Assembly: GCA_017499595.2 (NCBI GenBank)
Contig: CM039004.1
Location: 496,001-560,000 of the forward strand
Reading direction: 5' to 3'
From: Psilocybe cubensis
Lineage: Eukaryota
DNA: 64,000 bases
The translations under genes were made by a program, and so were the position numbers. Each line of letters starts with the position of its first letter. Position 1 is the stretch's first letter. Positions 5,454-50,642 of this stretch are shown here, one piece after another. The notes under the pieces were generated by a model. That model saw only the letters and a program-made list of their open reading frames with translations. It was not told where the DNA came from and did not search any database.

Positions 5454-7983
5454 TTACTGTTTTTTCTTCTTCGCGGCCGGTGCAGCTAGGGGGGACGAAT
5501 AGAATCAGGTACTCAAGAGACAACTTGCATTCGAACGACGCACCTCCAGTTTTGGTTTTAGGTGGATCTTTTCTTTTGACACCTCCATCCTGACTTCCAT
5601 CATCGGAAGCAGGGCTGCCGGCTCTTTTCGCTTTGGGCTTCGCAGTTTTGGTCTTCTTGACGGCCCATTTTCCTACAGGCGCACCAGGGTCATCCTCACA
5701 GTCAGGACAGAACCACTCGCCGTCAGGAACCGCGTCAAGAGGTGGATTCAGGCATTTCAAGTGCCAAGGCGCATCGCACTACAACAAAGCGCATGAGATG
5801 TGACTCGATTATTGAGAACGCATATTAGAAACATACTTTGTCACATTCGAGAGGATTGTCATCCTCTCCTTCATCTTTGTTGCAGCCCACGCAGAGTAAA
5901 GGGGGGGATACATCTTCAGGGTGACGAGGCATATCAGAGAACTTTTCGTTAGGCTTAGCGAGTAAAACAGTAGTGTTTTGACCAGCGGCTATACTACAAA
6001 AGACGTCAGAAAAAAATAACATGGCTCGAGTCCTAAGAAAGGCTCACTCAAATACATCAATGCCGACAAGCATGAGGTTTCTAGTAGGTTTGCTTGCACT
6101 TTTCCGTTCTTCCGGGCCCAGGCCAAGCTCACCTACACAGATGATTAATTTTAGCAATTTGCGAAACATCACTATCGAAATAAATGCATACCGTTATTGG
6201 CATTTTGTCCCCAACATACTGTCATAGGAGTACCATCATCATCAGGGGTAACCAACCAGTGAGTGACGCCCCCAGCTCGGGCCAAGATGACTTTACAAGT
6301 CCTAAAAGTGAGTTTCAGTGGCTGTTTTGAACATCATACAACGGTGAAGACAGACATGATATCTTGCATATAGCGGAAAGTGGAAAAAGGAGAACCAGAA
6401 GAACCTATAAAGATGATGTGTCAAGATAGTATCCGCATAAATTCATGATGCTCACCTTCACCGCTATTTTTCCACTAAGTGTTGGGAATTTGGGATAAGC
6501 GACCCACATTGCGCAAAATATCACAGAAATCTGACCTTGCCAGCCATCCAATACATTTTCTGATTGTCAACGACTACACTGTTCGATGGACCAGCAACGA
6601 TGTCACAAGCCATGGTCATCTCGTTTGGCCCTGCAAACTGAAATTTCGTGAGCATACAACTACATCCTTAACGAAGACATCGTACGTACCTGAGGGACGA
6701 CTTTGGGTTTCAGGACGTCTACTTGGTTCCCAAGCCCGAGTCGGCAGTATCCATTATAACCCCAAACATAGACGACGCTGTTAAAGGTCAGCTATGAGAT
6801 TATGGACCGTGATTGGAAAGAATAGAAATCATTACCCCGCCGAATCAAGGGCCAAGCTGTGCTGCTGACCGGAGACGATCCGAACAATTTTCTTTCCGTC
6901 TAGCTCCTTAACATAGACTTTGATTGGCAGGTTAGCATTTGCTCTGCCAATTAAAATGTACGGTCGACACCCACCAGGTTGAGTCTCAATGTCATACGAC
7001 GTCTTATTTCCGGTGGTAATGCGCTCTCCTGTGGTACCATTTCCAAGCTGGCCCTTCTCAGCACTTCCGAATGAGAAAACTGTACAACGTGGTCAAAAAG
7101 AGAGCACAGACAAGCTGATAGAATGAATATCACCTTTCCCCGACTTGGTGAGGACGATTGAAAAGGTAATCCCAGCGGAAGCTTGAATGACGTGTTCTTT
7201 CTTGCCGCCATGCGAAACCGATACGGACTGGAAAGAAGACACCTCGGGGCATATAGATTGGCCACACTACGCGAAATCCTTTGAGGATAAACTGGCTTGT
7301 TTGCGAACAAGGACAACTTCGCACCTGACCCAAATTGTTTTGTCCCGCTGCCCACACAGTACCGTCACTCCCAACCAGCAAGGTATGGTTCCTGCCGCAT
7401 GCCGCATGCACGAACTTTGTACCTTTTGGTGCTCCCAAATCCGTCGCTTTGACTAGCCGTGGTGCGTTCTCTGAGATGTATTCAACGTCGGGTACCCCAA
7501 GGCAACCAAACCCGTTGCGACCAAACAACCAGGCGTTTCCTTCTATATCGAGAACAACGAAGTGGCATCCAGCGCAGGAAGTATATGCGGACACGGCTTT
7601 GACATTGAGGAGAGAGCGGAGGAGGAATGGTTCCAGCAGGTCGGGATTTCTACATCACAAGAACAAACCAAACCACACCCTCGGGGTGAGTTCGAATGCA
7701 ATACAAATTAATTGAATATACGCACTCCCGTTCCACATGTTCACCTCCAGATGCTCCGCCACGGTCCTTGCGACCAAGTTTAGGCCTTGAAGGAACCAAA
7801 GAAACGACAATCTGGTTGAAGTTGGAAAGTGTGAGAAAGACGGAAAACGCACCAATCTGTTCCACCACATATTAGAACTAGTAAAAGACCGAATTAGCTG
7901 AGAGATTACGATATAAATATTCGATCCTAGTCACCTCGACCCCATTGGACTTCGGGGGATGTTTGTGTTTCGTCAGTGGTCAT
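5454..7983 (-). CDS. RCC1-repeat (RCC2-like) beta-propeller protein with a C-terminal PHD finger
   Basis: RCC1 blades (AACGRNHTLLVGSDGTVWAAGQNNLGQ, FSFGSAEKGQLGNG); PHD CVGC...LECDKC...WHLKCLNPPLDAVPDGEWFCPDC; basic tail AKKKKQ*. Confidence 0.85.
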
Positions 7984-8310
7984 GTAGGGCTTTGGTAGTA
8001 GAGATGCAAGTAGGGTGACTTTTCGGTCACTAGCATCCCGCCAGTGATTTCTCCAAAAGGACGTGGTACATTCAAGCGGTTAATGTGTCTACTTAAGGGC
8101 ACAGAGACAAAGGCAAACATGTTGGACACTATTATACACGTCGTAGATCTATATACACGCATTAAATAACCTAGAATCACTAAAAGATAGACAATCCCAG
8201 CAACTAGGAAAGCGATTGAGGTGCGCAAGAACCGGAGTATTACAAAAGCGGGGATCCCAAAGATGCTCCGAAATAGCCTGCGCTGTATAGCTATTAGAAA
8301 ATTTCAAAGG

Positions 8311-45840: not shown

Positions 45841-47208
45841 ATGACTTCGAAGCCTATTTCTCGAGATGACCTTCTGGTGCTCCTTTCCTCCATGGGCGTT
45901 GTTCTTCCCAAAGATAACAAATTACCTGAAGAAGAGCTCAACAAGCGGCTTAAAGAAGCCCTAGACACATCGCAGGAGTATTCGGATGTCATCAAGAAGG
46001 AACCTGTAGACCCTCTGTCCCTGCCTAAATGGTCTTCAGAGGAGAAAACTTTATATCAGGCGTCGCAGAGGGACAGCCTGTTGGAAAATTTAGGCGCTTC
46101 TTTTCCATCAAACGCTGTCTCTTTGGCGAAGGAGTATACCTTCAAGGAAATGAAGCAGACTCTACTAGGCGTTGCGTATACATATGACTTGGGCGTTAAA
46201 GAGATCTCATTTTTGACCCACGACGATACGTGGGGTATCTTTATCAGGGTGCGTCGCGTTAATCGTGAACGGGGTTATAGTATGACAGCTCATATATGCG
46301 CACTAGATAATTGGCGTTTACTGTCTCAAAAACGACATCCCCTTGACTTACATCCTATACAAAGAACTAAAGCCCACATCGGACACGCCTCTGGATGTTC
46401 TTCGTCGTCAAGTCCGTCTAGAACAGGACGATGTTACTTCACGGATCAGTGACCTTGAGGGACGTGCAATCCTAACGCTCTTTGAGCAGAATGGCGCGAG
46501 GCTTGACCCAAAATTGCTCCAACTTGCTGAAAGCCAAACAGTAAAACATTCGGGTTTCCGACCTTCGTTTATCCTCCCACTCTGTCCAATCAACATGCGC
46601 AATCTAGGAAGCCTGACTAAGGATCCTGGATGCGAAGTGTGCGGAAAGAAAACTACGTCTCGTTGTGTGCAATGTATGACGGCCGTATATTGTAGCAAAG
46701 GTGCGTGTTGGTAATTGTTCATTGACTTGAGCACCTGTTTTGACTAAATACTTATCTTGTGTTTGCAGAATGTCAGCGAGAAGATTGGCGAACTCACAAG
46801 TCGGCATGCAAATCAATGAAAGGGGGTTCATGGCACCCTATCACTGTCACCACGACTATGCCTGGAATGCCAAGTGGAGGTTTTTTATCGAACATCAACA
46901 CCCGCGACTCGTTGCACAGACATCCTCGCACTCAAAAAATTCCCTCAATTCCCAATTCCCAGGGGACTAAAATTTTCCTTGCCAAATTCCAAGTACCACT
47001 CGGGAATACGGCCTCACAAATGATGATATACGATAGACAGAAGGACTTTCAAGTTTTTTGGATGAGGAACACCAATCCTAAGCTTTTTGACGAGGCACAC
47101 AGATCCATGCAAGGGCGAATGAAGATGTACAGGTGGATGAAGCGAATTTCTGACAACCAGTACGCAATCTGCCTCGACCGTGCGCCAGAGCAAGACCCCC
47201 TGTGGTAG
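45841..47208 (+). CDS. MYND zinc-finger protein, paralog 2
   Basis: Same exon structure and motifs as paralog 1: CEVCGKK..SRCVQC...YCSKECQREDWRTHKSAC; CLDRAPEQDPLW*. Confidence 0.85.
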
Positions 47209-47534
47209 ATTTGATCGACAATCATTGTATATCTGGGACATTCATTCATTTTTTCGCTCAGCATTGTATTCTCCCTGGCTGTTATCGCACGCGCATATGT
47301 TTAAACTTTTCCTATTGTCACTGTAATCCAACTGTAATCGAACCCTCTGTTTTCGCGTTTTTGATCAACACACCCCTATCTATAGTTTTCGCGTCAATTT
47401 TGTGAGACCGAATGGATTACTGTGTCCGCGCGTCCGCCGGACATCCGCCGGACAGACTCACGTGACTACCTCGTCACGTCGCGTCTCAATGTACATTGCG
47501 CGCGCTCTCGCGCGCTTTGTATATATACTCAACA

Positions 47535-47675
47535 ACCCTAAAAACTAATCCCTAACCCCTAATCCCTAACCCATAATCCCTAACCCCTAATCCCTAACCC
47601 CTACACCCAACCCTAAACTACCTAATCCCAACCCTAAACTACCTAATCTAATTAATTAATTAATCCAACCCTAAG
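47535..47675 (+). repeat. Degenerate interstitial telomere-like tract (CCCTAA / TCCCTAA / CCCCTAA units)
   Basis: aatccctaacccctaatccctaacccataatccctaacccctaatccctaacccctac...accctaaactacctaa read directly. Confidence 0.9.
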
Positions 47676-47703
47676 AAATAAAACAAACTGCTAAAATATA
47701 TCA

Positions 47704-48152
47704 AGCACTGGAGTGGTGAGATTGAAACTAATAATTCCACCACTGCAGTGGTATAAGTTATGTAGACAATTTCACCACTTCAGTGGTACAAATCATGTGC
47801 ACTGTTCTAGCACTTGAGTGATATAAGATACATTCTAAATGTTACCACTCCAGTGGTGTAGAAATTATAAAAGTAGCAATAATTACTATTCTTAGCATTG
47901 TATTTATTCTATCTGACACACAACTATGACCACTGCAGTGGTGGAATACAACAAGTCAATTTCAGCACTGAAGTGGCAAACTCCAACATATTAATTTCAC
48001 CACTTCAGTGCTGATATTAACTTGCTACATTCCACCAATGAAGTGGTCATACTTACATGCTGTACTTGATCACTGGAGTGACCAAATTTACATGTCGGAT
48101 TTGACCACTTCAGTGGTGAAAACTAACATGTCAATTTCACCACCGCGGTGGT
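47704..48152. repeat. Array of 12 palindromic 14-bp repeats (consensus ACCACTnnAGTGGT) with 21-nt variable spacers, 35-bp period
   Basis: Repeat starts at 47704, 47739, 47774, 47809, 47844, then 47929, 47964, 47999, 48034, 48069, 48104, 48139. Confidence 0.93.
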
Positions 48153-48390
48153 CACGTGGGTCACGTGCTGTCCGCCGGACACTCCGTCCGGCGGAAATTA
48201 TGATTATATTAATCCATTCTATCTGAATTTTGTCGAGTTCGGATCCAATACATAATCGGATCAAATGTGCACGACGCCCGTCGATCACTCTTCTGAGTAC
48301 GACATTTGGATAAGCGAACCGCCACGAACATTTTCCAGACCAGCTATCAGCTTTTTCATTTAATACTCATTTCCTTCCAGAGTTTTTACA

Positions 48391-49766
48391 ATGTCGTCAA
48401 ACGATATTTCTCGAGATGAGCTTCTCCTTCTTCTGTCCTCTATGGGCGTCGTTCTCGCTAAGGATAACAAACTGCCCACAGAGGAACTAAACAGGAGATT
48501 CGGAATGGCTCTGAATACTGCTCAGGAACTGTCGGATGTCGTAGACAAGACACCCATAAACCTTGCTTCATTACCGAGATGGACATCGCAAAAGACACTG
48601 TTCGACGCTACAAAACGAGGAAGCCTGACCGAAGCGTTGGTGGGATATATGTCTCAACCGAAGAAAGGATACCTCTCACCAAAGGAGGAAATTTTCAAAG
48701 AAATGCGTCAAAGTGTTCTTCTCATGGCACATGTGTGTGATGTTGGCCTGAGAGATATATGTTTCTTGACTGAAGGGGATGAGTTGGGAATCTTCGTTCG
48801 GGTACGTACGTGGCAAACAGTATTGATTGCAGTGTAAACGCTCAATCGGTTTCGACAGATAATGGATGTCCTTCGCATAAAAGATGGCGTTCCGCTTTAT
48901 TATTTCGTCTACCGAGAACTGGTTCCCACACCTGACACGCCCATGGATGCACTCATTGACGGTATAGGCGTCGACAGAACGCTTATCAAAACTGGAATCA
49001 GCGATCTCGAAAGGCGTACACTTCTAAGACTGTTTCGCAAAAATACGAAGAAGCTCGACCCCAAAATTATCGCAATGGAACGAGATGCACAAGGCAAGGA
49101 GACGGGTCACCATCCATCATTTGTCCTACCACTCTGCCCTATTGCGATGCGCAATCTGGGAAAGCTTACCAACAATCCCGGTTGCGAAGTGTGCGGGAAG
49201 AAAAATACCAGCCGTTGCATGCAATGCATGTCGGTGGTTTATTGTAGTAAACGTGAGCTTTCTAAGTTGTTTTTTTCTGGGACGGCTTTTTACAGCTTCA
49301 CTCAGAGTGTCAGAAGGAGCATTGGCAGACGCACAAGGAAACCTGCAAATCAATCAAGGGAGGAACTTGGCATTCCATCACAGTACAAGAGCCGGACATG
49401 GGGCCGCCTGAGCTAAATTCTATAGTGAATCGTCTGGAGTCGATGCACAATCCTCAAACTGCAGGCATAAGCCCCTCAAATAACGGGATCCCTCCCGACG
49501 TCCATGGAGGAAAGGTGTTCCTCGCCAAGTTCCAGGTATCGCTGACCTATGATAACTACGGAATTTTAGCCCCAGATATGTTAGTTTATGACAGGACCAG
49601 GAGCTTCCGTTTTTTCTGGAAAAGAAGGTCTAATCCGCGATTGTTCGCGGAAGCGCAGAAAATGATGGGATCCAAGTTGAAGTTTTATAGGTGGGTGCGG
49701 CGAACAGGTGACTATCAATTTGATCTTTGCATCGATAGAGCGCCGCGAGAGGATCCTCTTTGGTAG
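48391..49766 (+). CDS. MYND zinc-finger protein, paralog 3
   Basis: ISRDELLLLLSSMGVVLAKDNKLP; CEVCGKKNTSRCMQCMSVVYCS; MLVYDRTRSF...CIDRAPREDPLW*. Confidence 0.85.
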
Positions 49767-50118: not shown

Positions 50119-50642
50119 TTACAGGTTGATGTTGATAGGGGTGCAGCCAGTAGTGATGATGCCATTCTGGAGTGCATGGACATTAGATTCCTCTACATCT
50201 GGTCGTCAATAACACCAATGGACTTACGAATGTGTTGCCGGTGCAGCACACAGGTTGAGCACTGCAAGAGTTGCCGGAGATTCCCAAAACATCGATGGGG
50301 GAGCAGCTCACTACAAAGCATCATGTTGAGCTCGGCAGAACAAATGGAGCGTAACATTATAGAGCTTACATCCAAGAAGGCCAGTGACGGGGCCGAGAAC
50401 AATGCCCAAGAGGCCGAGGAGAAGGTTGGTAGAGCTAGCGGTGGCCTGAAGTAGCACGTCAGTGATTGTGGAAATCGTATACCCCTGTGTAGAAAAAATA
50501 TTACCGAGAGTGTTTGGTCGCAGCAGTTGAGAGTACCGGTGTTGCACTGGTTGGAAGGGCCATCGCCACTGTTACGGGGAACAGCAGTGGCTGCTGCAAG
50601 GAGTGGGAGAGCGAGAACAAGAGTGGAGGCACGAGCGAACAT
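50119..50642 (-). CDS. Class I hydrophobin 1
   Basis: [32 protein letters not shown]...[21 protein letters not shown]...GCTPININL* (eight-Cys pattern). Confidence 0.93.

Follow-up and report, generated by a model that had tools for sequence, protein, structure and literature searches.

Between positions 47704 and 48152 of a 64,000-nucleotide stretch of Psilocybe cubensis DNA (assembly GCA_017499595.2, contig CM039004.1, positions 496,001 to 560,000 of the forward strand; hereafter the window), twelve 14-bp palindromic cores of the ACCACTnnAGTGGT type recur with a period of 35 bp in two blocks (47704-47857 and 47929-48152) and are separated within the blocks by 21-nt spacers. A first, sequence-only reading of this array had noticed that some spacers resemble one another better as reverse complements than in direct orientation, and had proposed that they descend from one ancestor and were flipped between symmetric sites, either by site-specific inversion or by hairpin-mediated template switching. 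The questions raised by this locus are whether the spacers are truly reversed, whether their orientation still changes, and by which process it arose.

The array is the interior of a DNA transposon

The element at 47404-48225 is a small, non-coding, non-autonomous cut-and-paste DNA transposon (MITE-like) whose internal and subterminal repeat region is formed by the array; the earlier reading had been made without the recognition that the array belongs to the interior of a multicopy DNA transposon. A genome search with the element region (46.6 Mb, 21 contigs) gave 71 matches, and the 15 array-bearing copies analysed, the present copy included, are distributed over 9 contigs. Three long relatives (6.1, 4.8 and 5.0 kb) have both termini and the 8-bp duplication in common with the small element. 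The flanks of these 18 copies, 15 small and three long, were read by eye, and the target duplication was an exact 8 bp in 15 copies and matched at 7 of 8 positions in two, the right end being absent in the last. In three of the 18 copies (L003, L004 and L008), all of them with an exact duplication, one or two extra G residues precede the left end.

The empty site was found in two 2026 raw-read runs with the same species label, X14 and X15, in which a joint from 47395 to 48226 skips 830 letters (822+8); 8 letters fit on either side of this joint, which is carried by 4 and 11 reads, respectively. A diverged empty allele is carried by two contig sets (X7 and X9), and read depth over the element is about 10-14 times that of the flanks. 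The insertion lies between two related MYND-finger genes (45841-47208 and 48391-49766), which are about 73% alike over their common stretch, and is polymorphic across haplotypes and strains. An ORF with introns on the minus strand, at 50193-50642 of the window, may encode a class I hydrophobin. The features of the element are the following.

47396..47403, plus strand: left copy of the 8-bp target-site duplication (flanks; joint 47395->48226)
47404..48225, plus strand: 822-bp non-autonomous DNA transposon, MITE-like, with 5'-GA...TG-3' ends (copies, depth)
47404..47419, plus strand: left terminus, which pairs with the right end as a short, imperfect inverted repeat (core GAATGGATTA)
47432..47454, plus strand: two subterminal TCCGCCGGAC motifs, a repeat family within the window
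47545..47648, plus strand: telomere-like C-rich simple repeats of period 14 and 21, differing in length among copies
47704..47857, no strand: left array block of 5 palindromic 14-bp cores and 4 spacers, 35-bp period, no orientation mixing detectable
47858..47928, no strand: 71-nt linker that interrupts the 35-bp phase; mirror at chance past its last 7 nt (20/64)
47929..48152, no strand: right array block of 7 cores and 6 spacers, orientation + + - - - +
47943..47963, plus strand: spacer R1
47978..47998, plus strand: spacer R2, loop of the fold-back mirror
48013..48033, minus strand: spacer R3, inverted copy of R1; replaced by a copy of R6 in L007
48048..48068, minus strand: spacer R4 (diagnostic columns)
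48083..48103, minus strand: spacer R5 (diagnostic columns)
48118..48138, plus strand: spacer R6
47922..48054, no strand: putative fold-back template-switch tract, a 55-nt inverted repeat (47922-47976 / 48000-48054, 85%) centred on R2
48171..48195, no strand: subterminal hairpin whose arms pair perfectly over 10 bp; its 5-nt loop (48181-48185) is found in both orientations among copies
48210..48225, plus strand: right terminus
48226..48233, plus strand: right copy of the 8-bp target-site duplication

The terminal inverted pair (47405-47419 / 48210-48224) extends over 15 nt at 87% identity and is imperfect, its tips being different, and the arms of the hairpin at the right end are built from the same word as the subterminal TCCGCCGGAC motifs. 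Deletions in the C-rich repeats at 47545-47648 are visible in the read and contig mapping, and these repeats match sequence close to several contig ends.

Several loci carry parts or rearranged forms of the element. In contigs of X7 and X9 the interior (window 47424-48204) is missing and roughly 21 bp from either end are joined directly, possibly as an ends-only derivative or a footprint. Right-end pieces of 17-29 bp stand alone at six sites (L131, L132 and L147, at C7:2259932, C8:3020657 and C9:195636; also L129, L122 and L124), three of which are flanked by exact 9-10-bp duplications; such pieces may have come from insertion of a single end or be footprints left by repair. At C6:363003 there is also a 16-bp left end by itself. 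L035 (C7:2138406-2140675) is a small copy split by about 1.5 kb of other DNA that carries the right-end hairpin of the long subfamily, and is likely to be a recombinant between the small and long subfamilies.

Orientation of the spacers and its fixity

Recomputation confirmed the matches from which the question started: the reverse complement of R3 agrees with R1 at 16/21 positions (9/21 forward), R5 agrees with R6 at 15/21 positions when reversed (9/21 forward), and in the right block the first position of the CATG-like word is 10 for all three plus spacers and 9 for all three minus spacers. For the six spacers of this block the best-scoring orientation is + + - - - +, which yields 204 summed matches versus 154 with all spacers forward (13.6 versus 10.3 of 21 per pair). 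This score, or its gain over the forward arrangement, was matched by none of 2000 shuffles in each of four designs, in which 0, 5, 6 or 7 end letters were kept. A gain of 50 was likewise reached by none of 3000 simulated direct-orientation arrays at each of three divergence levels, where the largest gain was 29. In the left block (4 spacers, 47718-47843) the orientation signal was absent (57 versus 55), and when all 10 spacers were pooled the shuffles did attain a gain of 50 (maxima of 59, 52 and 53; 150 shuffles each). The shuffling test on both strands that the sequence-only reading had called for thus upholds its claim for the right block, which stands far above the shuffles, and fails to do so for the left block and for the pooled array.

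At the level of single spacers, R4 fits the reverse strand at 7 of 9 diagnostic columns and the forward strand at none, and the reverse strand fits R5 at all 9. Part of the orientation signal corresponds to a 1-nt register of the central palindrome, given that in four of the nine plus-by-minus pairs the reverse complement is equalled or surpassed by a forward alignment in which one pair of compensating indels is allowed. Three of the six right-block spacers are truly reversed. Their common ancestry with the remaining spacers of the block, as proposed at the outset, is borne out by the pairwise matches relative to the shuffles; simple slippage cannot produce the reversed ones, and because the right-block spacers are related to one another they are not acquired foreign DNA, two further points on which the initial interpretation holds.

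The expectation that orientation would differ among copies and reads was not borne out. In the 14 other copies, which are 88-99% identical, orientation was kept in 134 of 140 spacer slots and none was flipped in place; among the remaining six, four were deleted, one was part-deleted and one was overwritten, the latter being R3 in L007, replaced by a direct copy of R6, a variant that the reads show as well, in the form of joints of 105 nt. Apart from single changes, the 2-bp centres of the cores are likewise fixed in the 15 copies; the core with 9-bp arms may have undergone a centre flip long ago. In addition, no strand change occurs among the 15 joints listed from the two raw-read runs and the two contig sets; this joint test covers block inversions. 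The flip of one 21-nt spacer alone would leave a cluster of mismatches in the reads, and the mapping gave, beyond what was listed, 347 rows of that kind and 167 loose ends, among which rare single flips may be present. An essentially identical pattern in all copies, which the first interpretation had itself named as evidence against it, is therefore what was found, and site-specific or recurrent inversion between symmetric sites is left unsupported by a pattern that is fixed in the 14 other copies. Since the same three spacers are reversed in the other copies examined, we are dealing with an old copying slip and not with an active DNA-flipping switch, and the mixed orientation is the fixed scar of a known mutational process.

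Origin of the reversed spacers

Each unit of the array combines a 14-bp palindrome with a 21-nt quasi-palindromic spacer, so that the centre of every core and every spacer offers a point at which a single strand can fold back on itself. Folding of single-stranded DNA shows this capacity, and the 55-nt inverted repeat forms the longest stem of the folded strand (z = -10.5). In the family majority sequence, the mirror around the centre of R2 runs through a core (13/14), a spacer (16/21), a second core (13/14) and the next seven positions (6/7), and ends after about 56 nt, past which the agreement of 20/64 is that of chance (P = 0.26). Together with their flanking cores, R1 and R3 match at 41/49 positions in reverse versus 32/49 forward, and two rare variants occur on both sides of the axis, namely the AGC form of the core and AAG instead of ATG in the spacer centre, the latter only in R1 and the reversed R3. 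The mirror, with the two rare variants across its axis, therefore suggests that the founder of the family underwent a fold-back template switch.

Judging from these traces, the nascent strand of the founder would have folded back around spacer R2 during replication or repair, copied core 2, spacer R1, core 1 and about seven more bases in reverse, and then rejoined the template in register, which would have left a reversed unit with the 35-bp period unchanged. A single fold-back tract stops short of R4 and R5, and these two spacers may have been reversed by one or two further switches or by one block inversion. The pattern was thereafter copied passively by transposition and has remained unchanged since; the changes still ongoing are loss, gain and conversion of units in direct orientation. 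We consider it likely that the locus is accounted for by this founder switch and its passive spread by transposition, with the cores probably kept as putative transposase sites. The flips are reconstructed rather than observed, because neither an autonomous parent nor the founder state was found.

The subterminal hairpin, the 5-nt loop of which sits 30 nt from the array, serves as an internal control. This loop is oriented one way in 8 of the 15 copies and the other way in 5, and the remaining two have another loop or none. The loop states are unclustered on a tree of the array region, on which strongly supported branches force at least three changes, and template switching is therefore at work within this element, even if the homoplasy of the loop could come partly from exchange between copies. 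In the window copy and in L002-L016 the loop thus forms a recurrent micro-inversion polymorphism, and a loose read end was seen at the hairpin in X9. In the portions available to us of a study in yeast (PMC8604942), template-switch loop inversions are described only with arms >9 bp and loops of 2-5 bp, and as recurring independently. The perfect arms of the array cores measure 4-6 bp, with one core reaching 9, and the stability of the array fits this limit. The same portions attribute Ripley-type quasi-palindrome switching to two polymerase hops between inverted arms, a recurrent and reversible process in which either an arm takes on the sequence of its partner or the loop is turned round, and the terminal 10-bp hairpin behaves exactly so. 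The tract in the array, in contrast, is about 55 nt long and spans a whole repeat unit, and its setting is a transposon array instead of a gene. Of the two mechanisms put forward by the sequence-only reading, hairpin-mediated template switching is thus the best one, given the folding, the mirror around R2 and the flips of the terminal hairpin loop.

The same arrangement could have arisen in the founder by a four-unit direct duplication and a subsequent inversion, through ectopic recombination or repair, in which the block R3-R5 was turned as one piece between palindromic cores. The contiguity of the three minus spacers would agree with this, and once the block is undone R3 and R1, as well as R6 and R2, come to lie four units apart, which would explain the 16/21 and 15/21 matches; however, two events are needed where the fold-back covers R1, R3 and their flanking cores with one, and the halt of the mirror also counts against a block. 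We regard this course as unlikely, and since it too predicts a fixed pattern, it would alter only the detail of an old event. Still less probable is that the orientation is partly apparent, the array being a chain of two alternating palindromes whose central 6-mer was shifted by one base through compensating indels. The four pairs in which a forward alignment does as well or better are in its favour, as is a spacer of a long relative that combines a plus-type start with a minus-type register, but the gapless reverse complement wins in the other five of the nine pairs, and R1 and R3, flanking cores included, have their rare variants in common only in reverse.

Site-specific inversion, in which the cores would be crossover sites of a recombinase or invertase acting now or in a lost parent element, draws on the structure of the cores: they consist of inverted 6-bp arms around a variable 2-bp centre, which is the layout of serine-recombinase sites, and some adjacent core centres are mutually reverse-complementary (GA/TC). 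There are also six tyrosine-recombinase matches in the genome, and a past enzyme is possible because the flips predate amplification. Nevertheless, this explanation is very improbable in view of the slots without a single flip, the essentially fixed core centres and the listed joints that keep their strand. Moreover, a domain scan of all 24 frames of at least 70 aa in the longest relative detected no recombinase, tblastx of the three long relatives gave no match to the six recombinase loci, the exact core occurs at none of these loci, and all 42 genome matches to a strict two-core pattern fall within this transposon family. To our knowledge, sites 35 bp apart are also too close for synapsis by known recombinases. 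A CRISPR-like memory, with captured foreign 21-mers between palindromic repeats, might be suggested by the constant repeat and spacer lengths and by the diverse spacers of the long relatives, but it is hardly credible when the right-block spacers are homologous, their order is identical across copies with no polarised gain, and new units come from duplication of a neighbour; in addition, the one spacer tested (1/10) had no exact match in IMG/VR, and Rfam gave no match for the two loci searched.

Phased cores and the mobilising transposase

Each of the three long relatives contains two arrays with the same core and 35-bp period and with different spacers (L031:3543-4137 and 7390-8040; also L032 and L033), and the relatives differ in unit number through direct duplication of neighbouring units. 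Spacer homology between the small and long subfamilies is weak (7/120 pairs; null mean 1.0, maximum 8), and orientation mixing in the right array of the long relatives was not above chance (gain 21, null mean 26). In the long relatives, the inner of the two arrays lies directly next to a JmjC-like cargo gene, at its last exon that can still be recognised. When 19-27 letters were allowed between cores, all 29 genome matches still showed the 35-bp spacing. With the sequence and the 35-bp phase kept across three spacer sets, the 14-bp palindromes are most likely protein-binding sites.

Variation among the small copies depends on which changes are counted. With C>T/G>A changes set aside, core arms vary in 5/144 columns versus 33/210 for spacers (P = 2e-4); with all changes counted there is no difference (37/144 versus 66/210, P = 0.28). 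The decay of the small copies consists mostly of C>T/G>A changes with a peak at CG (13%), as would be expected of methylated repeats. Selection on putative binding sites would be the simplest reading of the low core variation, and conversion among cores, rather than selection, could also have lowered it. It is reasonable to suppose that the cores were kept as orientation-independent predicted sites for the mobilising transposase; a symmetric core in this putative role would make spacer direction irrelevant, so that the sequence and direction of the spacers would be free to drift.

In the accessible text of PMC1636448, transposases bind repeated subterminal MITE motifs in either arrangement. 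The Emigrant/Lemi1 system treated there resembles the present element in being short, non-coding and multicopy, with polymorphic insertions and internal motifs in either orientation; the present element differs in its 8-bp duplication, as opposed to a pogo-type site, in its very short imperfect terminal repeats and in its strictly 35-bp-phased palindromic motif, for which transposase binding is only putative.

A three-core pattern matched 17 metagenome loci, all of them read as direct-orientation minisatellites, and none of the five of these loci that were checked had the termini of the element. Metagenome contigs L105, L110 and L116 carry a direct minisatellite of 35 bp that combines an ACCAC-nnnn-GTGGT palindrome with a 21-nt spacer and lacks the element termini; it is probably unrelated to the element. 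A scan of viral sequence with the two-core pattern returned one locus, which was unrelated. A Pfam match of the translated repeat array to a sea-anemone cytotoxin is a repeat artefact, since no stretch passes alone. Searches of the open-licence PMC and bioRxiv literature gave no description of the element; Repbase or paper supplements may hold it.

An autonomous parent was not found among the genome matches to the left-end pattern (19) and the right-end patterns (22 and 31), which consist of the small copies, the three long relatives (also non-autonomous), a single incomplete long copy, short remnants of the ends and matches that probably arose by chance. The domain scan of the longest relative detected no transposase either, and tblastx of the long relatives against 50 KDZ and 8 hAT loci gave no matches, only cargo loci being matched. 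A DUF3435 search had no match anywhere, controls included, and so carries no information. The long relatives contain pieces of the cargo gene, a paralogue of which has JmjC-type look-alikes by features only, with no Pfam match; relatives of this gene occur in other large repeats, one of them adjoining a Plavaka transposase, and for this reason the cargo gene cannot classify the element. Membership of Plavaka/CACTA does not agree with the 8-bp duplication and the GA..TG ends, given that the available part of PMC12730594 assigns to this group 2-3-bp duplications and TGT..ACA or CATCA..TGATG ends.

The 8-bp duplication and the short, weak terminal repeats fit KDZ transposons, though not exclusively. 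As far as the accessible sections of PMC12730594 go, Zisupton and Dileera make 8-bp duplications, Kyakuja has CA..TG ends, lacks terminal repeats and duplicates 7 bp of the target, and hAT elements also usually make 8-bp duplications. For Cryptococcus KDZ1 and KDZx1, the part at hand of 10.1101/2024.08.15.608186 gives 8-bp duplications with terminal repeats present or absent, so that the present element is like KDZ elements in its 8-bp duplication and in terminal repeats that are weak or absent, and unlike them in that no KDZ transposase was found in it or in its three long relatives. The genome holds 96 KDZ matches, and the ends read for five KDZ families were in no case the same as those of the element. 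A 12.3-kb KDZ family (L156-L157, C4; copies 99.99% identical) has 5'-GA...TG-3' ends and subterminal motif arrays as the element does, but differs from it in its 7-bp duplications and in its motif. By eye, the arrays of this family are in opposite orientation, with the short motif inward-facing at both ends, and this motif resembles the terminal word of the 822-bp element. Eight hAT dimerisation matches were found in the genome, and these loci have none of the termini of the element and no exact cores within 1.5 kb. Because KDZ elements make 8-bp duplications, because 96 matches occur in the genome and because a family with GA..TG ends is among them, we lean towards a transposase of the KDZ group as the likeliest mobiliser, with hAT remaining as the alternative.

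A bolder possibility, which we hold only as a long shot, is that the phased cores would form a docking array for an element-encoded sequence-specific factor beyond the transposase, namely a VANC-like anti-silencing partner, possibly working with the JmjC-like cargo gene beside the second array of the long relatives. Here too the spacers would be unconstrained in sequence and direction, since the factor would read nothing but the symmetric cores and the distance between them. According to the portion of PMC5735166 available, VANC proteins of Arabidopsis have tandem repeats as targets, and the VANDAL/VANC target arrays are like the present ones in being tandem repeats in non-coding transposon DNA that vary among related elements; the present host, however, is a fungus, and no VANC-like protein was identified.

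For this mushroom, the analysis removes a tempting false lead, as the array is neither an invertase system nor a CRISPR-like memory. It provides instead a clean case of template switching in nature that brings its own control: the loop of a perfect 10-bp hairpin flips repeatedly and the imperfect array stays as it is within one 800-bp element. One palindrome at a strict 35-bp phase over three unrelated spacer sets is also a candidate cis-element for fungal transposons with 8-bp duplications, whose end recognition we did not find described in the literature surveyed. If the anti-silencing reading were true, it would extend VANC-like self-protection to fungi, with a transposon that writes its own epigenetic protection signal.
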